Shown here: positions 1,125-29,062 of the stretch, piece after piece
Layout: each line of letters begins with the position of its first letter
Position numbering within the stretch: position 1 is the stretch's first letter
Source of the DNA: Okeania sp. SIO3I5
GTDB taxonomy: Bacteria; Cyanobacteriota; Cyanobacteriia; Cyanobacteriales; Microcoleaceae
Assembly (NCBI RefSeq): GCF_010672085.1
Contig: NZ_JAAHHT010000051.1
Span: forward strand, 934 to 33,165
Length of the DNA: 32,232 bases
Reading direction: 5' to 3'
Position numbers and translations under genes: made by a program
Notes under the pieces: generated by a model
What the model was told of the DNA's origin: nothing
Seen by the model: the letters and a program-made list of their open reading frames with translations, nothing else
The model's database searches: none

Positions 1125-4100
1125 ATGTCAATAAAAGTCAGTCTGAATCATCAACTTATTTACAATTTTGACCGCCCTATTATTCTCGGACCGCATCAGT
1201 TAGGATTGCGTCCTTCTCTTCATTGTCCTACTCCGATTCAAAGTTATTCATTAAAAGTTGAACCTCAAGAACATCAAATTACTTGGCAACAAGACGTTTA
1301 TGGTAATTTTATTAGCAAAATTAACTTTCTTCAGAAAACAGATAAACTAAAAATTGAAGTTGACATAATCGCTGAACTTAAACCCATAAATCCCTTTGAT
1401 TTTCTCCTGGAAGCTTATGCAGAGAAATATCCTTTTGTTTATGAAAATTCGCTAAAAAAACAACTAACTCCTTTTTTAGAAATCGCCGAATCAGGAGATT
1501 TACTACAGGAATGGATAAATAAAAATAGACAAATAGACACCTATACTACTAATTTTATCAATTCTATTAATCAACAACTTGCTCAAGATATTAACTATGA
1601 AATTAGACTAGAACCAGGTATTCAAACTTGCGAAGAAACTCTCCACAAAAAAATTGGTTCCTGTCGAGATACAGCTTGGTTATTCGTACAAATTTTGCGT
1701 CATTATGGTTTAGCAGCTCGGTTTGTTTCTGGATATTTAATTCAACTCAAAGAAGATATCCCACCCCTCGATAATTCCCCTACTCCAGAATTTGACAATG
1801 GAGACTTACACGCTTGGGCAGAAGTTTATTTGCCGGGAGCGGGTTGGATAGGTCTAGACCCCACCTCTGGTTTTTTGGCAGCAGAAGGTCATATTCCCCT
1901 GGTCTGTACTCCAGAACCTACAGCAGCAAATCCAGTACAAGGCACGACTGAACCCTGCGAGTCTAACTTAGAATTTTACGTCACGGTCTCTCGGTACGAA
2001 GAAAAACTAAGACCTACTAAACCTTACAGTGAAGAGGAATGGGAAAAAATTAACAACCTTGGTAGGGAAGTTGAGGCAAAACTAAGACGTCTTAGTTTAG
2101 GGTTAACGATGGGAGGAGAACCTACCTTTATTTCTATTGATAATTTTGAATCTCCACAATGGCGAGTGGAAGCTTTGGGAGATGAAAAACGCCGACTTGC
2201 GGGACAGTTGTTAAACCGTCTGGAAAAAAGATTTGCTAAGAATGGAGGATTATTACATTATGGTTTGGGTAAATGGTATCCGGGTGAAGCTTTGCCAAGG
2301 TGGGCACTAGGATGTTATTGGCGTCAAGATGGAGTTCCTATTTGGAGCGATCGCTCTCTCATGGCACAAGACAATAAAGATTATGGTCATGCTCGGAAGG
2401 AAGCAGAAATTTTTATCCAGAGTTTAGCGCAACATCTGGGCGTTAATTCAAGTTGCATCATTCCTGCTTATGAACAGGAAACTGAAACACCTGCGGGTTA
2501 TGTTTTGCCGATTTTGTCAGTCTTGAAAAATGAAAATTTGCACTGGAGTAGTTGTCATTGGCAATTACCCGAAAGTAAATTTCACTTGATCCCTGGGGAC
2601 TCACCCTTGGGGTTTCGTTTGCCACTTAGTTCCATTTCTTGGGCAGAAAATTTGGAACCTGAAGCAACCGTCGATATTAACCACCCCCCCACAACTCCAA
2701 GTCCTACATTCTTAGAAGCTCCTGAAAATTCTATTCGGGTAGCTTTAACCACAGAAGCGCGACTTGGAAAAATACATATATTTATCCCACCCATGACTTC
2801 TGCTAGAAGTTATTTAGATTTAATTGCGACGATTGAAAATACGGCAAAGCAACTAAAAATTCCCGTCATAGTTGAAGGTTACACACCTCCTGGGAATGAG
2901 GGAATAGATGGATTTCAAATTACTCCAGACCCAGGGGTAATAGAAGTAAATATTCATCCCGCAGAAAATTGGCATGAGTTGGTCGAGATTACTACAAGTT
3001 TATATGAAGAGGCGCGTTTGTGTCGGTTGGGAACTGAAAAATATCAGTTAGATGGTCGTCGGATAAGTACCGGTGGGGGAGCGCATATTACTATTGGCGG
3101 TAAGAATCTGTCGGAAAGTCCTCTATTAAGACGACCAGATTTATTGCGGAGTCTAATTACATATTGGCAACATCATCCTAGTTTGTCTTATTTATTTTCT
3201 GGTTTATTTGTCGGTCCGACGAGTCAAGCACCCCGAATAGATGAGGCGCGACATGAAAGTTTGTATGATTTGGAAATTGCTTTTCAGGAGTTACAACCGG
3301 GAAAAGAAGTTGCCCCCGAATTAATAGATCGTTTGTTGAGAAATTTATTGGTGGACGTCACGGGAAATACTCACCGCACCGAATTTTGTATTGATAAATT
3401 ATTTCCAGTGGAAAATCTACGCCGTCGGTTTGGGTTATTGGAGTTTCGAGGATTTGCAATGCCTCCCCACCCTAGAATGAGCTTATTACAAATGTTGTTA
3501 ATTCGGGCTTTGGTGGCGTGGTTTTGGGAACAACCTTATCAACGAGATTTGATTCGCTGGGGGACAATGCTCCACGATCGCTTTTTTCTGCCTCATTATA
3601 TAGGTGAGGATTTTCAAAAAGTAATTAGAGATTTGCAGTCGGCAGGTTTTGGATTTGAATTTGACTGGTTTGCGCCGTTTTTTGAATTTCGTTTTCCGAC
3701 AGTTGGGGAAATAATGCGGGATGGGTTGCAGTTGGAGTTACGTTATGCAATTGAACCTTGGCACGTTTTGGGAGAAGAAACAACTGGTGGAGGAACAGCG
3801 CGTTATGTGGATGATTCGATGGAAAGGTTGCAAGTAATCTTGCGAGGTGCGATGGGAGATTCGCCCAATCAGGATAGTGTAGGTTCGCGGTATTTAGTTT
3901 TGTGTAATGGTCGTCAGGTACCTTTGCACTCTACGGGTGTGACAGGTGAGTATGTAGGGGGGGTAAGGTATAGAGCGCGGAAATATGGGAGTTTATTACA
4001 TCCAGCGATCGAATCTCATAGTCCGTTGCTGTTTGAAATTGTGGATAGTGCAGTAGGGCGAAGTATTGGTGGGTGTAGTTATTATGTGAGTCCTCCCAAT

Positions 4101-4259: not shown

Positions 4260-4846
4260 AGGTATTATTTTTGATTACATGAGTATATATTATCGGTAAT
4301 ATATACACCACCAGACCAATCATGGTAACTAGGATATGGGTTGTAATCATTGTTTTGGAAATTTTTACATTATTCATAATTCATTGGTTGGTTTGTGTGA
4401 TTTTTAATTCAGATGGTGGTGATTATTCTCAGGACAAACGCATCTAAATTCTGTAAGCTCCTGCTGTTAAGCTTTAGAGAAGTAACGAGTATGAATACTC
4501 AGAAGTCTGACATTCTTCCCCTGTCAGAATTTCAAAATAAGATGCGTTTGCCCTGTGGTTATTCTTTTAATCACCCCACTTAGATTAAATATAAAATGTA
4601 CTATTGTCAAATATCAAGTATAAAATATTATATTATTTCAAGCTTGATATTTTTTGATTTTTATTAATAGCCATTTCCAGAAATTAATATTTTACAGGGG
4701 TTTTATGTGAATCATCAGATATATTTAATTAAAGCAATAATTATGTACTAAGTATTTAATAATACCTTTGCCTAAATGTTTATACTTGAAATGATTAATG
4801 GTATAGGTTCGCCAATATTTTGAAGAAGACAAATAATATAAAATCC

Positions 4847-5029
4847 GGTAGTCCTGCTGAGGAATGGCGAAGATACATAAGTTTTGTAATTTCTTCCCAC
4901 ACCTCCCACACCTCCCACACTTCCCACACCTCCCACACCTCCCACACCTCCCACACGAACCAACTTCCCACACCTCCCACACCTCCCACACCTCCCACAC
5001 TCTCTCTACCATTCCTCAGCACCACCACC
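4847..5029 (+). mobile_element. MITE copy A with imperfect ~21-bp terminal inverted repeats and an internal (TCCCACACC)n 9-mer tandem array, flanked by an 8-bp target-site duplication
   Basis: Terminal inverted repeats are 'GGTAGTCCTGCTGAGGAATGG' (left) and 'CCATTCCTCAGCACCACCACC' (right). 'taaaatcc' flanks the element directly at 4839-4846 and 5030-5037. About 11 TCCCACACC-type 9-mers lie inside. Confidence 0.7.
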
Positions 5030-5169
5030 TAAAATCCGGCTAATTAGTTATCGTATAGCACTTTTGCCGCTACGCGGAATTCAAAATTCAAAATTCATGC
5101 ATTATTGGTTAGTAAGGGTTTTAGGATTTTGTAACTGGTCAGTTATTTCTGCCATCCTGTACTAGGAAG

Positions 5170-5960
5170 ATGAGGTAAAATCCCTATTTTCGAGAGCTTC
5201 GGAAAATGAAAATATGGTAGTCCTGCTGAGGAATGGCGAAGATACATAAGTTTTGTAATTTCTTCCCACACGAACCAACTTCCCACACGAACCAACTTCC
5301 CACACCTCCCACACCTCCCACACCTCCCACACTCTCTCTACCATTCCTGAGCACCACCGCCGAAAATATTTCTCCTATTGCTCTTGGGAAAATTCCTGAA
5401 TATGGAAAAGTTTTTTTTGAACGGTTAATTGGGTTGAATAAAAAGTCATGCGTAGGGGCGAACAACCCCATCTAATCTTTAGAATATCACAAAAGTTGTG
5501 AGGAAGCAACGGGAAATCTTTTGACCCCCCGAAATTTTTGGGAGCTTCAGACAATGAAAATGTTCGTGATTTTTGATTGAGCAGGAAGGGAAAGATTTGA
5601 TGAGGGAACAATCTCTATTTCCGAGAGCTTCAGAAAATGAAAATATTTCTGCTATTGCTCTTGGGAAAATTCTTGGATATTGAAAAGGTTTTGTTGAGCG
5701 GTCAATTTGGTTGAATAAAAAGTCATGCGTAGGGGCGAACGAGCCCATCTAATCTTTAGAATATCACAAAAGTTGTGAGGAAGCAACGGGAAATCTTTTG
5801 ACCCCCCGAAATTTTTGGGAGCTTCAGACAATGAAAATGTTCGTGATTTTTTGATTGAGCAGGAAGGGAAAAATTTGATGAGGGAACAATCTCTATTTCC
5901 GGGAGCTTCAGAAAATGAAAATATTTCTGCTATTGCTCTTGGGAAAAAATTGCTTTCGCT
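5170..5960. repeat. Tandem array of ~276-290-bp units (family 1), about 2.7 copies, with the first copy interrupted by MITE copy B
   Basis: The unit landmark 'ttgaataaaaagtcatgcgtaggggcgaac' recurs at 5433 and 5709. 'gagcttcagaaaatgaaaatatttctgctattgctcttggg' recurs at 5626 and 5900, and a partial copy lies at 5180-5215/5370-5400. Each unit is itself built from two related half-units, both containing 'gagcttcagaMaatgaaaatRtt'. Confidence 0.75.
5216..5361 (+). mobile_element. MITE copy B (same family as 4847..5029), inserted into a unit of the ~280-bp tandem array with an 8-bp target-site duplication GAAAATAT
   Basis: The same terminal inverted repeats are present ('ggtagtcctgctgaggaatgg' ... 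'ccattcctgagcaccaccgcc'). 'gaaaatat' lies at 5208-5215 and 5362-5369. Removing the element and one copy of the duplication regenerates the sequence 'gaaaatgaaaatatttctSctattgctcttggg' seen in the intact paralogous unit at 5636-5670. Confidence 0.8.
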
Positions 5961-6044
5961 TTGTCGCTGCGGACGACTCTTAAACCGGATTCTATATTAA
6001 AATTAATTTTAATATTTTCAAATAGATATGAACAGGAAATAAAT

Positions 6045-7172
6045 ATGTTGAAATCGTTAACTATAAATAATTTTCGTTGCTTCCAATCTTTTGAACTTCA
6101 ACAACTTAGCAGAGTTAATTTATTAGTTGGAATGAATAATAGTGGGAAAACTTCAATTTTAGAAGCAATTCAACTTTTATATTCCTTTCATCAACCAGGC
6201 AAATTTCATAAAATGATATTAGATAGAGGAGAATATTTTACGGAAGGCGATCGCCAACTGGATATTCGTCACCTTTTCTATGGGCGTGAAATTTCATTAG
6301 GAAGCGAATTTTCTATAGTAGGAAATAATGGAAAAGAACAGGAAAAGTTCATTGCTTCAATACAAACAGAGTATCCTAATAATTCCGAGCAAGATATATC
6401 AGATAATTCAGAAGAATTTAGAGATGAGTTAGAATCATCAAAAAAACTTGTTTTTATACTTGATTGGCAGAATCAACCAGTAAAAATAAAACGAAATTTA
6501 TCAGATTATGGAGGTGTATATCTGGGAGACTCAAATTGGGCTATATTGGCGACAAAATTAAATACAAGAGTTGCTAAATCAATTGTAAAATCCCAATTTA
6601 TTGCACCATTGTCTCTGAATATTAGAGAAATTAGTAAACTATTTGATGAAATTGTATTAACACCAGAGGAAAATTTGACTCTAGAAGCACTGCAAATTAT
6701 TGAACCTAAAATTGAACGTATTGCTTCAATTGGTCCTGAAAAATACGATTCTAATAATGAAATTGTAGGAGCAAGAGGTGGATTTAGAGTAAAAGTTTCT
6801 GACCAAAAACAACCCATACCTATTGGCAGTATGGGAGAAGGAATATGGCGAATTTTAGCATTAGCGATCGCTCTGGTTTCTGCTCAAGGTGGAGTATTAC
6901 TTGTAGATGAAATTGATACTGGTTTACATTTTTCTACAATGTCTGATATGTGGAAACTTATTTGGAAAACAGCGAAAAAATTAGATGTTCAAGTATTTGC
7001 TACGACTCATAATAGTGATTGTTGGAGTAGTCTTGCGGATGTGATTAAAAGTGAAGGTTTAGAAAGTGAAGAAATTAAAATTCACAGAATAGAAGCTGAT
7101 AAAAATAGTTCTGTAGTTTTCACAGAACCAGAAATTGTTATTGCTGCAAAACGTGACATAGAGGTGCGATAG
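6045..7172 (+). CDS. AAA_21/AAA_15-type ABC ATPase (AbiLi/AriA/OLD-N-like), the ATPase component of a two-gene module
   Basis: The track ORF runs 5961..7172. I place the start at the in-frame ATG at 6045 (MLKSLTINNF...), which has AGGAAA 6 nt upstream. N-terminal 'LTINNFRCFQSFELQQLSRVNLLVGMNNSGKTSILEAI' is the Walker A region. C-terminal 'GGVLLVDEIDTGLHFSTMSDMWKLIW...VQVFATTHNSDC' carries the Walker B, D-loop and H-loop typical of AAA_21. Confidence 0.8.
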   Translation: MLKSLTINNFRCFQSFELQQLSRVNLLVGMNNSGKTSILEAIQLLYSFHQPGKFHKMILDRGEYFTEGDRQLDIRHLFYGREISLGSEFSIVGNNGKEQEKFIASIQTEYPNNSEQDISDNSEEFRDELESSKKLVFILDWQNQPVKIKRNLSDYGGVYLGDSNWAILATKLNTRVAKSIVKSQFIAPLSLNIREISKLFDEIVLTPEENLTLEALQIIEPKIERIASIGPEKYDSNNEIVGARGGFRVKVSDQKQPIPIGSMGEGIWRILALAIALVSAQGGVLLVDEIDTGLHFSTMSDMWKLIWKTAKKLDVQVFATTHNSDCWSSLADVIKSEGLESEEIKIHRIEADKNSSVVFTEPEIVIAAKRDIEVR

Positions 7173-7175
7173 TAA

Positions 7176-8121
7176 TGGCAAAAAAAGGAAGAAAATTACC
7201 TCCTAAAAATAAGCTCTTGGTAGAGGGTGCTGAGGATAAAAGAGTTATTCCATATTTGATAGAAGCGAATGGAGTTCCTTGGGGTGAAAATAAAGAAGAA
7301 GCTTCAACAATTAATAATTAATAATGAATAATGAATAATTAATAATTACCTCTCCTTGAAAAGAAGAGGATTGACTAATTATGAAAATTTTTATTTATTA
7401 TCCCCTGAAAAGGGGAGGCTTTAAACCAAAATTTTTCGGTAAGCATTCAGCACTCAGCTATCAGCTACATTACCTTTAGTTTACAAGTCAAGGTTATCAT
7501 TATTATGCTTAAATTCTTTGGTTAAAAATGGTAGAAGTTCAACTAAATTATGGCTTCATTCATTTAATGAACCAGAAAATACATGGCAAACTATTAGGAA
7601 TGTTTGTTTGCTTAAAAATTAAGGTTGAAAACCTTTGCTTTCAAGGAGAAAAAACAAAAAAATTATTTTTAACCAATCCTTTTATTAAAAAGAAAAGGTA
7701 ATTATTAATTATTAATTATTAATTGTTAATTATTAATTATTGAATAAGTATTCCTGATTTTCCTGAAAATTTACCAGAAACAGGTCTAATTCATAACACT
7801 AATTCTGGTGTTAAATTTGGAGTGTGGATGATGCCAGATAATAAAATGCGTGGGATGCTAGAAACATTTCTAACTTATATGATTCCTGACGAAAATGAAC
7901 CTATTTGGAATTATGCACAAACAGTTGTTATGGAAGCTAAAAATCAAGGTGCGCCATTTATAGAAAATCATAGTGATAAAGCTAATATTCATACATGGTT
8001 AGCTTGGCAAAATCCTCCTGGTCGTCAATTACATAATGCTGTGATGGAAAAAATATTAAATCCAAAACATCCCCAAGCTCAAATATTTATTAACTGGTTT
8101 AAAAAATTATATGACTTGTAA
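7176..8121 (+). pseudogene. Small partner gene of the ATPase, apparently split by a ~430-bp MITE cluster into an N-terminal fragment (7176..7322, 48 aa) and a C-terminal open frame (7744..8121)
   Basis: The ATG at 7176 lies 4 nt after the ATPase stop, indicating translational coupling. Fragment 1 reads 'MAKKGRKLPPKNKLLVEGAEDKRVIPYLIEANGVPWGENKEEAST*' and carries a TOPRIM/DUF4276-like 'LLVEGxxD' motif. The reading frame then ends in AT-heptamer repeats plus the ACCTCTCC-hairpin elements (7313-7743). A second open frame resumes at 7744 ('...ENLPETGLIHNTNSGVKFGVWMMPDNKMRGMLETFL...KLYDL') with no ATG until late; the annotated track start at 7822 is GTG. No frame-restoring junction was identified, and assignment to DUF4276/AbiLii versus DUF4435/AriB is by gene order only. 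Confidence 0.4.
7313..7743. mobile_element. Cluster of small ACCTCTCC-hairpin MITE-like elements plus AT-heptamer arrays
   Basis: The left end reads 'aattacctctccttgaaaagaagaggattgactaa' and a second hairpin 'cccctgaaaaggggaggctttaaacc' follows. The right end 'ttaaccaatccttttattaaaaagaaaaggtaattatta' is an inverted copy of the left end. Both sides are flanked by (AATTATT)n heptamers. The same termini recur at 19437-19560, 26590-26710, 26870-27060 and 28780-29040. Confidence 0.55.
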
Positions 8122-17976: not shown

Positions 17977-19287
17977 ATGTCTTCTTTAGATTCTCAAACT
18001 ATCAATTTTATTCAAAAAATACAACAGCAAATAGCGTCTCTATTGTTATATCAATCTGTTTTAAAAAAAACAGTAGGTGAAGCTTTTATTCAGCTATTAC
18101 AATCTTTGTCTAAAAATGATAGAACTGAAATAGAATACCTTCTAGCTTATGGCAACTGGTTTAGAACTATTGCTAGTCAAAATATTTCCTGGCAAGAATA
18201 TCTAATTTCTCAGATTCTTCAGGATGATAATCCTTTTAGTCAACAAGTTCAAAAAATAGATATTAATACCCTATCTCCAAATTTAATTGCAGCAGCAAAA
18301 CATGATTTACGAATCTTACAAAACCTTTATCAGCTAAGTGGTTACAAAATTAGTAGCTGGGTAGACACAATAGGTAAATTAAACTACACTCCCGTTGCTT
18401 GGGAATTAGAATCAGAAAGAAAAGAACCTATTTATGAACAGTTAAGAAATTTACAAAATTGGTCGGATGCTATTGAGATTTTAGCTACTCATTATCGTCA
18501 TTTTGGTACGGGTTTATTTGCTGAATCAATTGCTTTTGAATGGCGTAATGGTGAACTATTAACTATTACCTATCCCGATCCAGTTAAATTAAAAGAATTA
18601 GTAGGATATGAATTTCAACGAGATACTTTAATTAAAAATACAGAATTTCTCCTAGCAGGATATCCAGCACTTAATGTTTTACTTTATGGTAGTCGTGGTT
18701 CGGGGAAATCTTCCTTAGTAAAAGGTTTATTAAATGAGTATAGTCAACGCAATCTCCGTTTAGTTGAAGTAGCTAAATCAGATTTAAAAGATTTACCATT
18801 AATTATTGAAAAATTACGGAATGTTCCACAAAAATTTATTATCTTTGTTGATGACCTTTCCTTTGAAGAAGATGATGATACCTTTAAAGCTTTAAAAGTT
18901 GTTTTAGAAGGTAATTTAACTGCCAGACCAGCAAATGTGGTAGTCTATGCTACATCAAATAGAAGGCATTTAATAAGAGAATTCTTTAACGATCGCCCTC
19001 GCCCAAAAGATAGTGATGAAATTCATAATTGGGATACAGTTCAAGAAAAGCTTTCTTTTAGCGATCGCTTTGGTTTAACTTTAACTTTTGAACCTGCTAA
19101 CCAAGATACTTATTTAACAATTGTCAGACATCTGGCAAAGCAAGAAAAAATCAATCTAAATCCTAAAGATTTAGACTATCAAGCATTACAATGGGCAACT
19201 AGAAATAATGGTCGTTCTGGGCGAACGGCACGACAATTTATTGATTTTCTCAAAGCTAATGAACAATTAATAATGGATAATGGATAA
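17977..19287 (+). CDS. P-loop ATPase of the DUF815-like family (436 aa)
   Basis: Complete ORF. Walker A is 'LLYGSRGSGKSSLV' and Walker B is 'FIIFVDDLSFEEDDD'. 'VVVYATSNRRHLI' resembles the sensor region. The gene is flanked on both sides by AT heptamer arrays. Confidence 0.7.
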   Translation: MSSLDSQTINFIQKIQQQIASLLLYQSVLKKTVGEAFIQLLQSLSKNDRTEIEYLLAYGNWFRTIASQNISWQEYLISQILQDDNPFSQQVQKIDINTLSPNLIAAAKHDLRILQNLYQLSGYKISSWVDTIGKLNYTPVAWELESERKEPIYEQLRNLQNWSDAIEILATHYRHFGTGLFAESIAFEWRNGELLTITYPDPVKLKELVGYEFQRDTLIKNTEFLLAGYPALNVLLYGSRGSGKSSLVKGLLNEYSQRNLRLVEVAKSDLKDLPLIIEKLRNVPQKFIIFVDDLSFEEDDDTFKALKVVLEGNLTARPANVVVYATSNRRHLIREFFNDRPRPKDSDEIHNWDTVQEKLSFSDRFGLTLTFEPANQDTYLTIVRHLAKQEKINLNPKDLDYQALQWATRNNGRSGRTARQFIDFLKANEQLIMDNG

Positions 19288-19436
19288 TGGATAATTGATA
19301 ATTGATAATTAACTAGCTATTAGCTTTTAGCATTTCCGTTACAGAATGCTATGCAAACAGCTAACAGCTTGTAGGGGCGAATGGCCATTCTTATTGTTGG
19401 GTTTAAATCCCTGGTTTCTATAAACCGGAAGGTTGA

Positions 19437-19560
19437 GGAGAGTTCAACAATTAATAATTACCTCTCCTGAAAAGGGAGAGGATTGACCAAGAAGGAAAAA
19501 AATTTCTTTTCTCCCTCTTGAAAGGGGCAACTGTTAACCTTAATTATTTAATTATTAATT
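19437..19560 (+). repeat. ACCTCTCC-hairpin MITE-like unit followed by (AATTATT)n
   Basis: The unit reads 'taattacctctcctgaaaagggagaggattgaccaag...ctccctcttgaaaggggcaactgttaacc' and is followed by 'ttaattatttaattattaattattaattattcattattcattatt'. Confidence 0.5.
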
Positions 19561-19771
19561 ATTAATTATTCATTATTCATTATTTTGTATCATTCTTTTT
19601 TCGCACTGATATTAACAACTAAGTTTAAATGAATATAAACTTTAAGGTCAGGGGGGATAGCTTTTGTAGTAAGATTTATTCTGAATAAATAAAGCAATAG
19701 CTGAATGCTGAATGCTGAAGACTGAAGGCTAAATGCTGAAGACTAAATGCTGATAAAATGAGGTAACTAAA

Positions 19772-20218
19772 ATGGGTCTTTTTGATCAAGGAACAGCAAC
19801 AATACAAGCTACTGATATTAAGTTAGAACCTGCTGAAGCTTTTGCAGCGATCGCTTTAATTGCTGTAGCTGCTGATGGTATTATTACTGATAGTGAAAAA
19901 CAAGGTTTTAGTAAGATTTTCTCTCGCATGGAACTGTTTAGTAATTATTCAGATGAAGGCAAGAGAGAAATGTTAGATCGTCTCTTAGGTATGATTAAGA
20001 ATAAGGAAATTAAGCCTTTGTTTGATGCTGCAGTTATTAAACTTCCTCAAGAGTTAAAGGAAACAGTTTTTGCTGTTAGTACAGACTTAGTTTTAGCAGA
20101 TAGAGACCTTGCTGAAGAGGAAGAACAACTTTTGAATGAATTGTATAATGCTTTGGAAATTTCTGAAGCAGTTGCTACTAAGATTATTGATGTAATAATG
20201 ATTAAAAATAAAGGTTAA
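19772..20218 (+). CDS. TerB-like (tellurite-resistance TerB family) protein, 148 aa
   Basis: Complete ORF with GAGGT upstream. Two TerB-type amphipathic halves are present: 'AFAAIALIAVAADGIITDSEKQ' and 'FAVSTDLVLADRDLAEEEEQLLNEL'. Confidence 0.6.
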   Translation: MGLFDQGTATIQATDIKLEPAEAFAAIALIAVAADGIITDSEKQGFSKIFSRMELFSNYSDEGKREMLDRLLGMIKNKEIKPLFDAAVIKLPQELKETVFAVSTDLVLADRDLAEEEEQLLNELYNALEISEAVATKIIDVIMIKNKG

Positions 20219-21439: not shown

Positions 21440-22605
21440 TATATTTATTTTCCTTTCTACAATGTTTGCGCGATCGCCTAGGGATAATAAGAATTTTTGA
21501 GTTGAATAAAAAGTCATGCGTATGGGCGAGCTAACCCATATACCTTTTATGATATCACAAAAATTGTCAGGATGGAGCCGAAAATCCTTTGACGCGCTAA
21601 AATTTTTCAGGAGCTTCAGAAAATGACAATGTTATTGGTTTTCCACTCTACAATATTTGCTCGAATATTTGCGCGATCGCCAATAGGCAATAATCTTTTG
21701 AGTTGAATAAATAGTCATGCGTATAGGCAAGTTACCCCTGATAACTTTTATGATATCACAAAAATTGTGAGGATGGAACCGAAAATCCTTTGACCCGCTG
21801 AAATTTTTTAGGAGCTTCACAAAATGACAATGTTATTGATTTTCCACTGAGCAGCTATAGATGGAAAGATTCGACGATGGGAAAAACAAACATATTATAT
21901 TTATGGGAAGCTCTCACAAAATGAAGATATTTCTGGCATTGCTTTGCCAAAGAAAATTCCTAAATACTTGCATTGTCTATTACCAAAGAAATTTGGTTGA
22001 ATAAATAGTCATGCGTATAGGCAAGTTACCCCTGATAACTTTTATGATATCACAAAAATTGTGAGGATGGAACCGAAAATCCTTTGACCCGCTGAATTTT
22101 TTTAGGAGCTTCACAAAATGACAATGTTATTGGTTTTCCACTGAGCAGAGATAGATGGAAAGATTCGACGATGGGAAAAACAAACATATTATATTTATGG
22201 GAAGCTCTCACAAAATGAAGATATTTCTGGCATTGCTTTGTCAAAGAAAATTCCTAAATACTTGCATTGTCTATTACCAAAGAAATTTGGTTGAATAAAT
22301 AGTCATGCGTATAGGCAAGTTACCCCTGATAACTTTTATGATATCACAAAAATTGTCAGGATGGAGCCGAAAATCCTTTGACCCGCTGAATTTTTTTAGG
22401 AGCTTCACAAAATGACAATGTTATTGGTTTTCCACTGAGCAGAGATAGATGGAAAGATTCGACGATGGGAAAAACAAACATATTATATTTATGGGAAGCT
22501 CTCACAAAATGAAGATATTTCTGGTATTGCTTTGCCAAAGAAAATTCCTAAATACTTGCATTGTCTATTACCAAAGAAATTGGGAAACCAAAACAAGGGA
22601 AGACT
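21440..22605. repeat. Tandem array of ~292-bp units (family 2, related to the 5170-5960 array): one short ~206-bp variant followed by three full units
   Basis: 'ttgaataaaWagtcatgcgtatRggc' recurs at 21500, 21703, 21999 and 22291. Units are more than 95% identical to each other. They are homologous to family 1 throughout (for example 'atatcacaaaaRttgtSagga...aaatcYtttgacc...ggagcttcaSaaaatga'), but diverged at about 30%. Confidence 0.75.
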
Positions 22606-25321: not shown

Positions 25322-26173
25322 ATGAAAGGTATTGTCCGCAAAACTAGCAGGGTTAGTAATTGGCTAACCGTAGTGAATAATCATTGGTTAGTTAATCTAA
25401 ACCTGTTATTCACATTAGTAAGAAGAGACTTGGAAGCAAGATATAAAGGCTCAATTCTTGGCAATTTATGGCCACTACTCAATCAGCTATCCCAACTTTT
25501 AATTTATACCTACGTCTTCTCAATTATTCTTAAAGTTAAGCTTGACCTAAAAGGATTACCAGAAGATAGTAAACTAACTTTTGGATTATGGTTATTTGCA
25601 GGATTAATACCCTGGTTAGCTTTTACGAGTGGATTGACTCAAGCTTCTGGTTCCGTAATTACACAGCCTAATTTAGTTAAAAAAGTAGTTTTTCCCCTTA
25701 GTTTATTACCCTTAGTTCCGATTCTTTCAACATTTATAGAAAGTACATTTGGATTAATAGTTTTAACAGGAATGTTTTATATATCATCCGGGGCGATAAA
25801 TCAAACATTATGGTTACTACCGATAGTGTTTATACCTCAGCTTTTATTAACAGCAGGTTTAGGATATTTTACTGCTGGATTAACAGTATTTTTGCGAGAT
25901 ATTCCACAAACTTTAGGAGTAATTATTAATCTTTGGTTTTACGTTACACCAATAGTATATCCAGCATCAGTAATTCCAGAAAATTGGCGAATTTGGGTAT
26001 TTTGGTGTAATCCTTTAACAGCGATCGCTGAAGTATATCGTGACCTAGTATTAATAGGAGAAATTAAACACTGGGGAGAATTAGCAATTTCTGGTTTAAT
26101 CTCTGTACTAATATTTTATTTTGGCTTTTGGGTTTATCAAAAATTGCGTCCTGCTTTTGCTGATGTTTTATGA
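25322..26173 (+). CDS. wzm: ABC-2-type polysaccharide/O-antigen export permease (Wzm/KpsM/TagG family)
   Basis: The track ORF starts at 25268, inside a heptamer array. A more likely start is the ATG at 25322 (MKGIVRK...). 'LVRRDLEARYKGSILGNLWPLLNQL' is the ABC-2 signature N-terminal region. Six hydrophobic segments are present. It is followed by a Wzt-like ATPase. The symbol is inferred from context and is not certain. Confidence 0.75.
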   Translation: MKGIVRKTSRVSNWLTVVNNHWLVNLNLLFTLVRRDLEARYKGSILGNLWPLLNQLSQLLIYTYVFSIILKVKLDLKGLPEDSKLTFGLWLFAGLIPWLAFTSGLTQASGSVITQPNLVKKVVFPLSLLPLVPILSTFIESTFGLIVLTGMFYISSGAINQTLWLLPIVFIPQLLLTAGLGYFTAGLTVFLRDIPQTLGVIINLWFYVTPIVYPASVIPENWRIWVFWCNPLTAIAEVYRDLVLIGEIKHWGELAISGLISVLIFYFGFWVYQKLRPAFADVL

Positions 26174-26210
26174 GTAAGCATTCAGCATTCAGCCATCAGC
26201 TATTAGCTAT

Positions 26211-26466
26211 TAATTAGGGTTTGCTGATTAAAGTTTAAAGCTTTTACAGATAAAGGTTTTAGCCGTTTTCTGTGTTGAAGAAGTACAAGGTTTTTGCTAC
26301 GCAAGAGCTGCAAAAAGTTAGGATTAAAGGGTTAACTATTGGCATAAAAATCAAGGGATAATTCTTATTTATGCCTCCTCTAAATTCCTTAATACTCCAG
26401 TTTCAAGTCTCCTATCTCCTGACTCTTACCCTCACCCATAATACTTTTTCAGCAAACCCTAATTAC
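26211..26466 (+). mobile_element. MITE-like element with terminal inverted repeats TAATTAGGGTTTGCTGATTAAAG ... CTTTTTCAGCAAACCCTAATTA
   Basis: Both termini are present. The internal sequence 'aaaaatcaagggataattct...cctctaaattcctta...ctcctgactcttaccctcaccc' is shared with the 13263-13620 copy. Confidence 0.6.
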
Positions 26467-26589
26467 TTGCATAATCAGCAGGAATTAGTATTCAGAAATT
26501 TAAGGATAATTAAAAGTATCTAAAGGCGAGGTTTAAATGAATATTTCTTGCGGTTAAAAGAGACTGATTTTACAGAAATAATTAATAAT

Positions 26590-27060
26590 TAAACAATTAA
26601 ACAATTAGATCATTCAGGTTTAAAGCCTCCCCCTTTCAAGAGGAAAAAAATAAATTTTTTTCTTTTAGCCAATCCTCTCCCTTTTAGGGAGAGGTAATTA
26701 TCCATTATCCATTAATGAAAGTAACTTTTAATTCTCCATTGATTTGTCAATTACTTTTGCTTCCTCCATTCTGTAATAGCTAATAGCGGAATGCTTACGA
26801 AAAAAGATTAATTTTTGACAATTGCTGCAAGATATTATATACTCTTTATTTATTGCATTTTTACCGAAAAATCAAGGTCTAAAGCCTCTCCATTCATGGA
26901 GAAAAAAGCGGTCGTTTGCGAATAATTCCGTAGCATGGGATGGATGGGTTACCTAACCATATCTAATCTCCCGTTGAGAAGAAAAAAAATTCCTTTTAAC
27001 CAATACTTCTATTACAGAAGAGGTAATAATTAATAATTAATAATTAATTATTAATTATTG
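26590..27060. repeat. Two ACCTCTCC-hairpin MITE-like elements (26590-26710 in inverse orientation; 26870-27060 long variant), with AT-heptamer arrays
   Basis: The first ends 'ggaggctttaaacc ... cctcttgaaaggggg ... ccaatcctctcccttttagggagaggtaattatccattatcc'. The second reads 'aaagcctctccattcatggagaaaaaagcggtcgtttgcg...gggatggatgggttacctaaccatatctaatc...ttttaaccaatacttctattacagaagaggtaataatta'. Confidence 0.5.
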
Positions 27061-27184
27061 AATAATAGCCTTAAATTTGTCTGGGAGACTAATTGCCCCT
27101 TCAATTTGATAATAAGTTGTTAATAACTCATAACTGATAGCTGATAGCTAATAGCTGATAGCTGATAGCTTACATATAAAATCT

Positions 27185-28567
27185 ATGATGCCTGAAACTG
27201 TAATTTCACTACAAAATGTTTCTAAATGTTTTAAACGGTATCGACATCCCGTAGACCGTTTAAAAGAAATTTTACTCCCAGGAAAAAGTCGTGCAGATGA
27301 ATTCTGGGCAGTACAAAATATAAATATAGAAATAGAAAAAGGGCATACTTTAGGAATTGTAGGGCGGAATGGTTCGGGAAAAAGTACCCTTTTACAAATA
27401 ATTGTAGGCACTCTAACACCAACAGCAGGAAAAGTAAAAGTTAAAGGTAGAATTTCTGCACTACTAGAGCTGGGAAGTGGATTTAATCCAGAATTTACAG
27501 GGAGACAAAACGTTTTTTTTAACGGTCAATTATTAGGATTAAAAACATCAGAAATAGAAGCAAAATTTGACAAAATTGCTAGTTTTGCCGATATTGGTGA
27601 TTTTATTGACCAACCTGTAAAAACTTATTCTAGTGGAATGTTTGTTAGGTTAGGATTTGCTGTAGCTACCAGTGTAGATCCAGATATTTTAGTGGTTGAT
27701 GAAGCACTTTCAGTAGGAGATGAAGCATTTCAAAGAAAATGTTTTGCTCGTATTCAAGACATTCAAGAAAGGGGAGGTACAATTTTATTTGTTTCTCATG
27801 CTGCTTCAACGGTAGTTCAACTTTGTGATTCTGCAATTTTGATGGATCATGGTGAAATGTTACTTTATCATACTCCTAAATATGTGGTTTCTAAATATCA
27901 GAAATTAATTTATGCTTTCCCTGATAAAATTCCCTCAATAAGAGAGGAAATTCGCCAAATTCCTAATTTAACTATTCAGGATTTATTTGATGATGAGGAG
28001 ACAGATGAATCAACATCTCAATCTCAACAAAATAGTGAGAATAAAAGTCAAGATCGGATTGCAGAATCAACAGAATATGAAGAAATTTATGACCCAGAAA
28101 TGATACCTTCAAATACCGTACATTATCCTAATAAGGGAGCAGAAATTATTGACCCCCATATTATTACTTTGGATGGTAAAAGGGTAAATCATTTAATTAG
28201 TCGCCGGGAATATTACTATACATACAAAGTAAAGTTTATTAATTCCACATCTAAGGTTAGATTTGGAATGTTGATCAAAACTCTGAGTGGTTTTGACTTG
28301 GGTGGAGCGTCTTTACATGGTTCGACTAAATCGGTAGAATATATTGCAGCACAACAAATAGTTATAGTTAAATTTAAGTTCAAATGTTTACTAAATCCTG
28401 GTGTATATTTTTTAAATGCTGGAGTTGTGGGAATGGCAGACGATCATCTGACGTATTTATCCCGTTGTATTGACATTGCTATGTTTAGAGTGCAACATTA
28501 TAGTGATTCATGCGGCACAGGTGTCGTTGACTTTTTAATAGATCCATTATTAATAATTAATAATTAA
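27185..28567 (+). CDS. wzt: Polysaccharide ABC exporter ATP-binding protein with C-terminal carbohydrate-binding extension (Wzt-like), 460 aa
   Basis: The nucleotide-binding domain shows 'GIVGRNGSGKSTLLQII' (Walker A), 'YSSGMFVRLGFAVA' (signature) and 'ILVVDEALSVGDEAFQRKC' (Walker B). A ~200-aa C-terminal extension (from about residue 250) is of the size and position of Wzt C-terminal glycan-terminus-binding domains. Confidence 0.8.
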   Translation: MMPETVISLQNVSKCFKRYRHPVDRLKEILLPGKSRADEFWAVQNINIEIEKGHTLGIVGRNGSGKSTLLQIIVGTLTPTAGKVKVKGRISALLELGSGFNPEFTGRQNVFFNGQLLGLKTSEIEAKFDKIASFADIGDFIDQPVKTYSSGMFVRLGFAVATSVDPDILVVDEALSVGDEAFQRKCFARIQDIQERGGTILFVSHAASTVVQLCDSAILMDHGEMLLYHTPKYVVSKYQKLIYAFPDKIPSIREEIRQIPNLTIQDLFDDEETDESTSQSQQNSENKSQDRIAESTEYEEIYDPEMIPSNTVHYPNKGAEIIDPHIITLDGKRVNHLISRREYYYTYKVKFINSTSKVRFGMLIKTLSGFDLGGASLHGSTKSVEYIAAQQIVIVKFKFKCLLNPGVYFLNAGVVGMADDHLTYLSRCIDIAMFRVQHYSDSCGTGVVDFLIDPLLIINN

Positions 28568-28779
28568 TAATGGATAATTAATAATGGATAATTAATAATG
28601 AAAACTATCTCTAATTATCAATTATTAATTACCTCTAGTTCAAACCATTGGATTGAATCAAGTAGGGAAATATTATTTTTTTTCTCCTTTTCCTCTTTCG
28701 ATCTAATAGCTAATAGCTGAGTGCTTTGATGAAACTATTACCGGAATAATTAATAATTAAAAAATTAAATAATTAGATA

Positions 28780-29040
28780 ATTCATGTTGAAAGCTTCCCC
28801 AATAAAGGGGCAAAAAGCGGTTGAGGGATGGATAGGTGACCTAAGCATATCCAATCAACCAAGAGAGCGGTTGTTTGCGGAGCAGTCCGTAGGATGGGAT
28901 GGATAGGTGACCTAAGCATATCCAATCAACCAAGAGAAATAAATCTTTTCCTTTTAGTCAATCCTCTTCCTTTTAGTCAATCCTCTCCCTAAAAGGGAGA
29001 GGTAATTATCAATTATCCATTATCAATTATCCATTAATGA
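28780..29040 (-). repeat. Long-variant ACCTCTCC-hairpin MITE-like element with an internal ~60-bp tandem duplication, ending in an (AATTATC/CATTATC) array at the start of the methyltransferase gene
   Basis: 'ggatggataggtgacctaagcatatccaatcaaccaagaga' occurs twice. The right end reads 'ttagtcaatcctctccctaaaagggagaggtaattatcaattatccattatcaattatccatta'. Confidence 0.5.
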
Positions 29041-29062
29041 ACTATTCCCTAAAGAAACAAAT

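Follow-up and report, generated by a model that had tools for sequence, protein, structure and literature searches.

[quoted passage not shown] AbiLii is predicted to be an OLD-like TOPRIM protein and superposes on 6NJV (PMC13064643), and an unnamed ATPase and toprim pair from Nostoc is cited by Deep et al. Closest to the locus described here is PDC-M38, one of 145 untested PDC candidate systems, with no mechanism described (Payne et al. 2024, bioRxiv 10.1101/2024.01.29.577857). Neither PDC-M38 nor DUF3226, the family of its smaller protein, was mentioned in the main text of the literature searched.

The window analysed is a stretch of 32,232 nucleotides from Okeania sp. SIO3I5, on a contig of a metagenome-assembled genome (MAG). 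The locus in question is a decayed version of a two-gene module common in cyanobacteria, in which an ABC-type ATPase is paired with a small OLD-like TOPRIM nuclease (a candidate phage defence); it is a pseudogenised member of the catalogued candidate system PDC-M38. The full reading, which is very probably correct, is of a recently pseudogenised pair made up of an AbiLi-like AAA_15/AAA_21 ATPase and a stand-alone OLD-type TOPRIM nuclease of ~220 aa (DUF3226), the nuclease gene destroyed and the ATPase ORF intact. Destruction of the nuclease gene by small repeat insertions and deletion is ordinary gene decay, and it is already public that the SIO3I5 partner fragments belong to DUF3226, as given in the NCBI annotation. 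The features described in the initial annotation were all present in the window sequence; its interpretation was essentially right apart from the guessed partner families, and its core claims survived testing. Features are given below in window coordinates.

6045-7172, + strand: ABC-type ATPase gene, 375 aa, intact (NEQ37323.1 / WP_293136919.1; Pfam, PADLOC and motifs)
6129-6155, + strand: Walker A, GMNNSGKTS
roughly 6195 to 6770, + strand: variable insert domain of the ATPase
6825-6851, + strand: signature-like motif, GSMGEGIWR
6894-6917, + strand: Walker B, VLLVDEID
6999-7016, + strand: H-loop, ATTHNS
7170-7177, + strand: gene junction TAGTAATG (ATPase TAG, 2 bases, partner ATG), read directly from the sequence
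7175-7303, + strand: partner N-fragment, codons 1-43, with the TOPRIM glutamate motif LLVEGAEDK (DUF3226 match; tblastn; DNA homology to L005 stops at 7303)
7303-7443, + strand: copy A of the ~140-nt dispersed repeat, 141 nt (87% over 142 nt to L001 7763-7903)
7309-7348 and 7699-7741: heptamer arrays
7349-7369: hairpin ACCTCTCC..., within copy A
7433-7476, + strand: 44-nt repeat of another small family (TTTTCGGTAAGCATTCAGCACTCAGCTATCAGCTAC...), overlapping the end of copy A
7477-7549, + strand: AT-rich filler, 73 nt, no match in the fetched loci
7550-7609, + strand: partner middle remnant, codons 77-96 (blastn 90% over 60 nt to L005 5362-5420; tblastn frame +1)
7614-7744, - strand: copy B of the ~140-nt dispersed repeat, inverted relative to copy A (79% over 134 nt to L001 7770-7903)
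7746-8121, + strand: partner C-fragment, codons 98-221 and stop, no usable start (DUF3226 match; NCBI annotation)

The ATPase ORF runs from the ATG at 6045 to the TAG at 7170-7172 with no internal stops, in agreement with the proposal that this gene is intact. In Pfam the product matched AAA_15 (1e-27) and AAA_21 (5.6e-19). Among PADLOC profiles it matched PDC-M38A (PDLC04611) at 9e-91, with residues 1-375 on profile positions 1-383 of 383, and AbiLi (PDLC02336) at 1.1e-50 over the full length (1-340 of 340); AriA profiles scored 1e-30 and 3e-27, partly in two stretches and far below PDC-M38A and AbiLi. The AAA_21-type layout of Walker A, insert, Walker B and H-loop that had been read from the sequence is confirmed. 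Changes in the ATPase on the window branch comprise 3 synonymous and 4 non-synonymous substitutions, very few for a branch test; in the ATPase of the sister pseudogene L085, 13 changes are non-synonymous, 3 of them stops, and 1 is synonymous.

The partner ORF begins 2 nt after the ATPase stop (TAG-TA-ATG), rather than the 4 nt first given. The same spacing is found in L003, L005, L010 and many other loci, and it suggests coupled translation of both genes. This second ORF extends over 48 codons, including KLLVEGAEDKRVIPYL, from the ATG at 7175-7177 (NEQ37324.1, 48 aa); it leaves the gene, enters the repeat and terminates at the TAA at 7319-7321. A startless open frame runs from 7744 to the stop at 8119-8121, where NCBI annotates WP_365671440.1 (123 aa, ATT start) and WP_293136922.1 (97 aa). 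Both frames are present as they had been described.

Against Pfam DUF3226 (PF11536; gathering threshold 27 bits) the N-fragment matched profile positions 1-28 (3.6e-06, 27.4 bits), the C-fragment positions 86-208 (4.3e-46, 157.8 bits) and a conceptual fusion of the two gave 3.6e-53 (180.9 bits), all above the threshold, the N-fragment narrowly; the matches of both fragments go far beyond what chance would give. The fusion matched PDC-M38B at 8.5e-63, and an intact orthologue (P0123) did so at 9.6e-77. By tblastn the N-fragment is 74% identical to P0001/P0003 and the C-fragment has 90% amino acid identity to P0001; at the nucleotide level the C-fragment is about 94-96% identical to the Dapis locus L005, varying with the span aligned. 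Homologues of the partner number 602, typically of 213-221 aa. Judged from sequence, both fragments are parts of one gene, as the initial annotation had held, and not independent small genes, because intact homologues of 216-221 aa exist and the syntenic locus L005 (Dapis sp. BLCC M229) encodes an intact partner of 221 aa.

The profile searches and PADLOC check suggested earlier were carried out on the ATPase and the fused partner and recovered AAA_15/AAA_21 and DUF3226, and PDC-M38A and PDC-M38B, respectively. The partner had been described as a small TOPRIM-like protein, and this part stands (OLD-type fold, E...DxD); the families guessed for it (DUF4276, RloB, DUF4435, AriB and AbiLii) gave no match. 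PF14103 (DUF4276) and PF13707 (RloB) had no match at E <= 1 in Pfam searches of the fragments, the fusion and 50 homologues, and at E <= 10 in PADLOC the AbiLii profiles did not match and only PDC-M38B profiles did. NCBIfam had no model for the partner, and a search of the partner sequence against solved structures gave no match.

Across 50 DUF3226 homologues E15, G16, D77 and D79 are invariant and D19 is nearly so. The AlphaFold model of the partner (pLDDT 80) has as its top Foldseek match the OLD C-terminal region 6njv (8e-4), and the Pfam OLD-like_TOPRIM profile matched 45/50 family members weakly. On this modelled structure, the DUF3226 family is predicted to have an OLD-type TOPRIM fold with a conserved E...DxD. 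In the window copy the TOPRIM glutamate is kept (LLVEGAEDK) and the DxD is lost, so that the catalytic set is incomplete. The codons concerned, in the middle remnant, read CAT TCA TTT plus one extra base in the alignment with L005, where the orthologue has GAT GCA GAT; with this frameshift the window copy is a dead TOPRIM member. The 44 nt that follow, encoding NEPENTWQTIRNVCL, are almost as in the orthologue.

The interrupting stretch, 7304-7745, consists of two inverted repeat copies, the 44-nt repeat, 73 nt of filler and the 60-nt gene remnant. Copy A contains, in order, a (TAATAAT)n array, a hairpin (ACCTCTCC..GAGAGG), an A/T spacer, a hairpin TCCCCTGAAAAGGGGA and then ..TTTAAACC..TTCGGTAA. 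Further copies of the ~140-nt repeat lie in L001, L007 and L012, with matches at about ten other sites in the window; a window copy at 19446-19584 has heptamer arrays at both ends. The 44-nt repeat has matches of about 80-82% at window 26167-26215, L005 8522-8563 and L010 4383-4424; the filler (7477-7549) matched none of the fetched loci. Mobility of the ~140-nt repeat is indicated by copies at non-homologous positions, within the window as well as on other contigs of Okeania and Dapis, and by L005 and L085, which have no repeat at either insertion site.

Disruption by a MITE had been proposed. Multi-copy small repeats do interrupt the gene at sites that are empty in relatives, and the unit resembles the MITE-like small dispersed repeats of cyanobacteria in being ~140 nt long, non-coding, hairpin-rich, multi-copy and variably present at orthologous sites. 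A classical MITE has terminal inverted repeats and target duplications, whereas the single ~140-nt unit shows neither clearly: the two ends of the 141-nt unit (TTCAACAATTAAT... / ...TTCGGTAA) do not mirror each other as inverted repeats, and the repeat junctions show no clear target-site duplication. No Rfam family matched the unit, or any part of the window, and no transposase is linked to it. A promoter scan of the window returned background level only, and the promoter and terminator scan was uninformative overall.

The orthologous locus was compared in relatives, as had been recommended, and yielded both an uninterrupted partner (Dapis L005) and a definition of both empty sites. L005 DNA aligns to window 5362-7303, 7550-7609 and 7746-8260. 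Relative to L005, a 141-nt repeat stands at codon 43/44, unrelated sequence has taken the place of codons 44-76, the catalytic DxD is mutated and frameshifted, and codons 96 and 98 are separated by a second repeat copy in inverted orientation. Copy A, the 44-nt repeat and the filler (7304-7549) thus stand in place of 99 nt of the orthologue, and copy B takes the place of a single Pro codon (CCA), L005 5421-5423 corresponding to window 7610-7745. The partner had been described as split by a repeat cluster. The insertions are real, and the stretch is not made of repeats only; since ~33 codons are missing as well, the gene was not cleanly split but had sequence both inserted and replaced.

Two other views of this region were discarded. 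A heavily decayed gene middle at 7480-7620 (tblastn 48% over 31 aa) was reduced by shuffle tests against L003 and L005 to 7550-7609, the only part left as homologous. A single foldback element at 7303-7744 (a self-match in reverse) was rejected because the enclosed remnant keeps the order and orientation of the gene and meets copy B at exactly the orthologous position.

The N- and C-fragments each carry one window-specific synonymous change, and 7444-7549 aligns with L005 5263-5361 no better than shuffles (z = -1.1), which means that it did not arise by decay of the missing 99 nt. From these two observations the disruption appears to be recent. With 33 codons and the DxD lost relative to L005, the inactivation that had been called probable is borne out, the damage is irreversible and excision of the repeats could not repair the gene.

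It is scarcely credible, on this evidence, that the split gene still functions, with the fragments working as separate proteins with the ATPase or the inverted repeats being removed at the DNA or RNA level. In its favour, the inverted copies A and B, with inverted-repeat arms at 7303-7396 / 7651-7744, can pair into a long hairpin when the DNA is single-stranded (-64.6 kcal/mol, z = -5.6), the flanking fragments are almost unchanged and NCBI annotates both as proteins. Removal of 7303-7744 or of either repeat, however, cannot bring back codons 44-76, and the invariant DxD is gone, with a frameshift. The C-fragment lacks an ATG/GTG/TTG start before family codon ~124 and would miss half of the TOPRIM core, while the near-identity of the fragments is equally predicted by a recent event. 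The SIO3I5 module cannot act as a nuclease-based system, repeat removal would not mend it, and the loss of the nuclease gene beside an intact ATPase ORF leaves an orphan ATPase without an effector.

That the interruption is an assembly artefact, the real genome having an intact partner, is likewise very improbable. The window comes from a MAG contig, the genome holds multiple copies of the interrupting repeats, a setting in which assemblers can mis-join, and no independent assembly of the strain was found (the exact ATPase and C-fragment P0004 were absent from the contig index, and the species from the genome representatives). Nevertheless the N-fragment, middle remnant and C-fragment keep their order and orientation across the insertion, the remnant meets copy B exactly where the orthologue goes on, and a mis-join would not give two separate insertions together with point changes in the DxD. 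Related assemblies, moreover, have similarly damaged copies with different lesions. Among Okeania-type loci other than the window, 7/7 examined have a different lesion in at least one gene of the pair; both genes are intact in three Dapis genomes and one metagenome contig. Decay of the locus itself is therefore the preferred reading, and the module decays independently across Okeania, which bears on the turnover of defence or toxin-like genes.

In an intact module the ATPase would, by analogy with PARIS, AbiL and the OLD nucleases, sense a phage-derived trigger through its variable insert domain and then control the TOPRIM nuclease, whose E...DxD metal site would cut nucleic acid and abort infection. 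Sensing and activation in the PDC-M38 pair are proposed here by this analogy only. In 83/84 fetched loci the ATPase gene is followed directly by DUF3226, the remaining contig ending just after the ATPase. Small plasmids of Acinetobacter and Citrobacter carry distant pairs and no other cargo, and no DUF3226 relatives were found in phage records. In 58 loci the immediate neighbours of the module, apart from Uma2 endonuclease genes, are mostly housekeeping genes, so there is no strong defence-island signal.

This neighbourhood also fits a module that is not anti-phage, whether a selfish cassette of the addiction or toxin-antitoxin type or an ATPase-nuclease pair with a housekeeping role, which is unlikely though to be taken seriously. 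PDC-M38 is on a list of untested candidates, a related ATPase and TOPRIM candidate (HEC-01) gave no protection (Payne et al. 2024), small plasmids that carry nothing but the pair are compatible with either addiction or defence, and a cell-cycle role outside defence is reported for an archaeal OLD-family ATPase (PMC12796447). Against this, architecture and folds match the validated defence systems PARIS, AbiL, Gabija and retron-OLD, and PDC-M38 cassettes were chosen because they are found inside BREX, DISARM or type I RM loci. The module is also patchily distributed, has been lost repeatedly and has an ATPase insert domain that is hypervariable, all of which is typical of defence genes. The defence and addiction readings overlap, since the behaviour of PARIS is itself that of a toxin-antitoxin pair. 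A broader proposal is speculative and rather improbable: PDC-M38 would be a distinct split OLD-family immune class, nearly ubiquitous in filamentous cyanobacteria and often Uma2-flanked, whose costly effector is repeatedly lost in Okeania, the orphan ATPase with its strongly diverged sensor domain being kept for another use.

Alone, the locus carries little weight, as a dead copy of a catalogued defence candidate whose fragments were already flagged as DUF3226. It does provide a clean, dated case in which a marine cyanobacterium rich in repeats lost a gene to small dispersed repeats and in which relatives define the empty sites. It also documents DUF3226 as a predicted OLD-type TOPRIM domain accompanying an AbiLi-like ATPase, both on small plasmids of proteobacteria and in about 80 cyanobacterial genomes, and it identifies intact copies worth testing, e.g. 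the Dapis pair at L005 4001-5799.

An AbiL/PARIS/OLD-type module had been proposed, and of this the AbiLi-like ATPase and the OLD-type TOPRIM partner stand, the partner being neither AriB nor AbiLii. In PARIS (AriA ABC ATPase and AriB DUF4435 TOPRIM nuclease; proposed as class 4 OLD) AriA sequesters AriB and is ~55 kDa, compared with ~375 aa for the ATPase here; the partner has no AriB/DUF4435 match, and DUF3226 is structurally nearer to class 1/2 OLD TOPRIM domains and PH0156 than to AriB. The OLD proteins of classes 1-3 (P2 Old, GajA and the retron Eco8/Ec67 effectors) are fused, whereas here, in the window as in every fetched locus, separate genes encode ATPase and partner. Lactococcal AbiL is like the module in the ATPase, which matches the AbiLi profile end to end, and the structure on which AbiLii superposes, 6NJV, is also the top Foldseek match of the DUF3226 partner; AbiL is lactococcal, and the DUF3226 family is cyanobacterial. 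PDC-M38 agrees best: the window proteins, B as its fused fragments, match both of its profiles strongly and over the full length, the two genes lie next to each other in the same orientation, and the window copy differs by its destroyed B gene.

In the window, an ABC ATPase gene that is still intact is paired with the gene of a small TOPRIM nuclease, a module of the PARIS/AbiL/OLD kind, and small dispersed repeats have destroyed the nuclease gene. The interpretation given in the initial annotation is essentially correct. The features of the module are as follows.

Features of the module in the window
6045-7172 (+), ATPase ORF of 375 codons, starting MLKSLTINNFRCF; stop TAG at 7170-7172
6129-6155 (+), Walker A, GMNNSGKTS
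Within the ATPase ORF, signature-like motif GSMGEGIWR
6894-6917 (+), Walker B, VLLVDEID
6999-7016 (+), H-loop, ATTHNS
7175-7321 (+), partner N-fragment ORF of 48 codons, containing KLLVEGAEDKRVIPYL; ATG at 7175, stop TAA at 7319-7321, ending within a (TAATAAT)n array
7303-7443 (+), copy A of a ~140-nt repeat
7433-7476, matches to a second small repeat family
7614-7744, copy B of the ~140-nt repeat, inverted relative to copy A
7744-8121 (+), partner C-fragment, an open frame with no start codon; stop at 8119-8121

The ATPase ORF, the 48-codon ORF running into the heptamer array and the start-less frame were all present as described in the initial annotation, except that the ATPase stop and the partner ATG are separated by 2 nt (TAG-TA-ATG) and not by 4 nt. 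The ATPase and both partner fragments exactly match proteins annotated in the Okeania sp. SIO3I5 MAG, where NCBI already names both fragments "DUF3226 domain-containing protein". In profile searches the ATPase matched Pfam AAA_15 (1e-27) and AAA_21 (5.6e-19), in agreement with its proposed AAA_21 type. The PADLOC profiles PDC-M38A (9e-91) and AbiLi (1.1e-50) matched it end to end, and AriA, NsnB, GajA and PtuA matched more weakly; its 375-codon frame is open and intact.

The partner had been described as a small TOPRIM-like protein, and this was right in kind but not in the families suggested, the actual family being DUF3226/PDC-M38. The 48-aa N-fragment aligned to positions 1-28 of the Pfam DUF3226 profile and the downstream frame to positions 86-208 (4.3e-46), and a conceptual fusion of the two matched PDC-M38B at 8.5e-63, placing the fragments in an ATPase-partner family. 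No matches to DUF4276, RloB, DUF4435, AriB or AbiLii were found with the fragments, intact homologues or 50 family members scanned singly; no NCBIfam model matched the partner, and a sequence search found no related solved structure. A database search returned 602 homologues; the matches listed came mostly from cyanobacteria, with lengths of typically 213-221 aa. Across 50 aligned homologues, numbered by the intact homologue P0001, E15, G16, D77 and D79 were invariant and D19 nearly so; this pattern is the signature of a TOPRIM domain, a glutamate followed by DxD. An AlphaFold model of P0001 (mean pLDDT 80, pTM 0.77) retrieved the C-terminal region of Xanthomonas OLD (6njv) in Foldseek (E 8e-4, probability 0.99), and 45 of the 50 family members touched Pfam OLD-like_TOPRIM weakly. 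The DUF3226 partner is thus an OLD-type TOPRIM protein.

That the two fragments are parts of one gene was established by comparison with the orthologous locus of Dapis sp. BLCC M229 (L005), which encodes an intact, uninterrupted partner of 221 aa (P0123). This locus is syntenic with the window, sharing the upstream DUF2126 gene, a repeat-rich spacer and downstream genes, and the two correspond in three DNA segments.

DNA correspondence between the Dapis locus and the window
L005 3317-5262 = window 5362-7303, 85% identity
L005 5362-5420 = window 7550-7609, 90% identity
L005 5424-5938 = window 7746-8260, 93.6% identity

From this correspondence, codons 44-76 and one Pro codon have been replaced: window 7304-7549 (246 nt) stands in place of 99 nt of the orthologue, and window 7610-7745 (136 nt) in place of the Pro codon. 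The similarity of 7444-7549 to the missing 99 nt of L005 was no better than that of shuffled sequence (z = -1.1); an earlier shuffle comparison was made against the intact metagenome locus L003. The stretch 7550-7609 is a true remnant of the partner gene, its last 44 nt, encoding NEPENTWQTIRNVCL, matching the orthologue almost base for base. Where the orthologue has the DxD codons GAT GCA GAT, the window reads CAT TCA TTT plus one extra base. Five substitutions and the 1-nt insertion are packed into these three codons (7554-7565), with hardly a change in the 44 nt that follow; they may have arisen at a frayed margin of the replaced segment, or in an inactivating event of their own. Because 33 codons and the DxD motif are gone, the module is irreversibly dead.

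The ~140-nt unit consists, in order, of a heptamer array, a hairpin ACCTCTCC..GAGAGG, an A/T spacer, a hairpin TCCCCT..AGGGGA, and then ..TTTAAACC..TTCGGTAA. It matches about ten further places in the window, and in other Okeania and Dapis contigs it occupies non-homologous sites (87% over 142 nt at L001 7763-7903, in another Okeania). Full or partial heptamer-array and hairpin copies were found in intergenic positions at 12505-12916, 16419-16502, 17943-17994, 19253-19303, 19446-19584 (with heptamer arrays at both ends), 26577-26733, 26983-27072, 28530-28690 and 28971-29046. No matches to 7477-7549 were found among the fetched loci, and no Rfam family matched. Two inverted copies lead one to expect a hairpin, and as single-stranded DNA the whole interrupting stretch can form a long one (z = -5.6). 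Disruption by MITEs had been proposed; the repeats do interrupt the gene and their sites are empty in a relative (L085), but terminal inverted repeats are absent from a single unit and target duplications were not clearly seen, so "MITE-like dispersed repeat" is the safer term. The spacer upstream of the ATPase (window 4820-5960) is also packed with repeats, including nonamer arrays TCCCACACC at 4895-5000 and 5298-5332, a 17-nt array, and ~280-nt tandem units also present at window 21497-22554 and in the orthologous spacer of Dapis (L005 2952-3910).

Each partner fragment carries only one window-specific change, both synonymous, which marks the disruption as recent. L085, the closest relative found, is a syntenic JGI metagenome contig (93% identity in the ATPase region) with no repeat at either site and with the middle of the partner gene present; its damage is of another kind, two stops and a C-terminal deletion in the partner and, in the ATPase, four stops and a 21-nt deletion. 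The other related copies were in the following states.

State of the module in relatives of the window locus
L001 and L002, two Okeania spp.: ATPase with three stops, partner intact
L008, O. hirsuta: ATPase with stops, partner with a stop
L010, Okeania sp. SIO2F4: both genes damaged, the partner with a different repeat flanked by duplicated ATGCGTGG
L012, Okeania sp. KiyG1: ATPase frameshifted, partner intact
L009, cyanobacterial MAG P01_H01_bin.35: ATPase intact, partner truncated
L005-L007, three Dapis genomes: both intact
L003, metagenome contig: both intact

At least one gene is inactivated in every other Okeania-type copy examined (L001/L002, L008, L009, L010, L012 and L085), by differing lesions; many copies in the genus, that of the window among them, have decayed independently. 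Elsewhere in cyanobacteria the partner was damaged in about ten of 80 loci.

With five outgroups, the window ATPase branch carried 3 synonymous and 4 non-synonymous changes, and that of its sister L085 1 and 13, the latter including 3 stops; these counts suggest that free drift of the window ATPase is unlikely, in numbers too small to be conclusive. Its insert domain (window ~6195-6770) is 71-74% identical to that of every other clade member except L085, against 82-98% among the remaining members and mostly 90-98% in the flanking segments. L085 (~3040-3600) has the same divergent allele, likewise still open, which makes it a lineage allele and not noise; its sequence suggests a sensor domain that was swapped or evolves fast.

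A DUF3226 gene directly follows the ATPase in 83 of 84 fetched loci, mostly genome representatives across cyanobacteria, the exception being a contig that ends just past the ATPase, and the spacing is often that of the window; judged by gene order, the pair is a conserved two-gene module. Distant pairs (23-34% identity) are the sole non-backbone genes on small plasmids, for example the 13-kb Acinetobacter variabilis pXM9F202-2-13k (L087, 2835-4651) and the 6.4-kb mobilizable ColE-type Citrobacter freundii pRHBSTW-00398_4 (L088, 2829-4675), where stop and start abut or overlap. No relatives were found in phage records. Immediate neighbours (n = 115 in 58 cyanobacterial loci) were mostly housekeeping genes, except for putative endonuclease genes of the Uma2 family (PF05685; PADLOC candidate PDC-S03), found beside the module in 22 of the 58. 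Fourteen of these genes are immediately upstream, in the same orientation; upstream genes fall at ~3200-3900 (L014, L025, L026, L033, L035, L039 and others) and downstream ones at ~5950-6780 (L062, L068, L070, L071, L073). Uma2, ATPase and DUF3226 could form a three-gene cassette, or the adjacency could come from common ancestry of the loci and from the sheer number of Uma2 genes that cyanobacteria carry.

Elsewhere in the window, 13657-16437 (+) encodes a bacterial protein of 926 aa homologous to the Major Vault Protein of eukaryotes (Pfam Vault 6.6e-67, MVP_shoulder 1e-53, Vault_2/3/4), followed by a DUF815 AAA ATPase (17977-19287) and a TerB-domain protein (19772-20218).

The window locus is a dead new member of a catalogued candidate kind, DUF3226/PDC-M38. 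PDC-M38 is one of 145 candidate systems chosen because homologous cassettes are embedded in BREX, DISARM and type I RM loci; HEC-01, a comparable ATPase and TOPRIM candidate, gave no protection in the same study. DUF3226 is not named in the literature searched. A passage of Deep et al. mentions an "unnamed two-gene system in Nostoc sp." of the ATPase and toprim type, credited to Makarova et al. 2011, which may be the DUF3226 family. ABC ATPases and TOPRIM proteins act as pairs or fusions in PARIS, AbiL, Gabija, P2 Old and retron-OLD, and the two domains are fused in class 1-3 OLD proteins (PMC10568477). By analogy, a trigger would be sensed in the intact module by the variable insert domain of the ATPase, and the nuclease effector would be the DUF3226 TOPRIM. 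In PARIS, an AriA hexamer sequesters AriB until binding of a phage anti-restriction protein leads to its release, and the released AriB cleaves tRNA (PMC10802264, PMC11464382).
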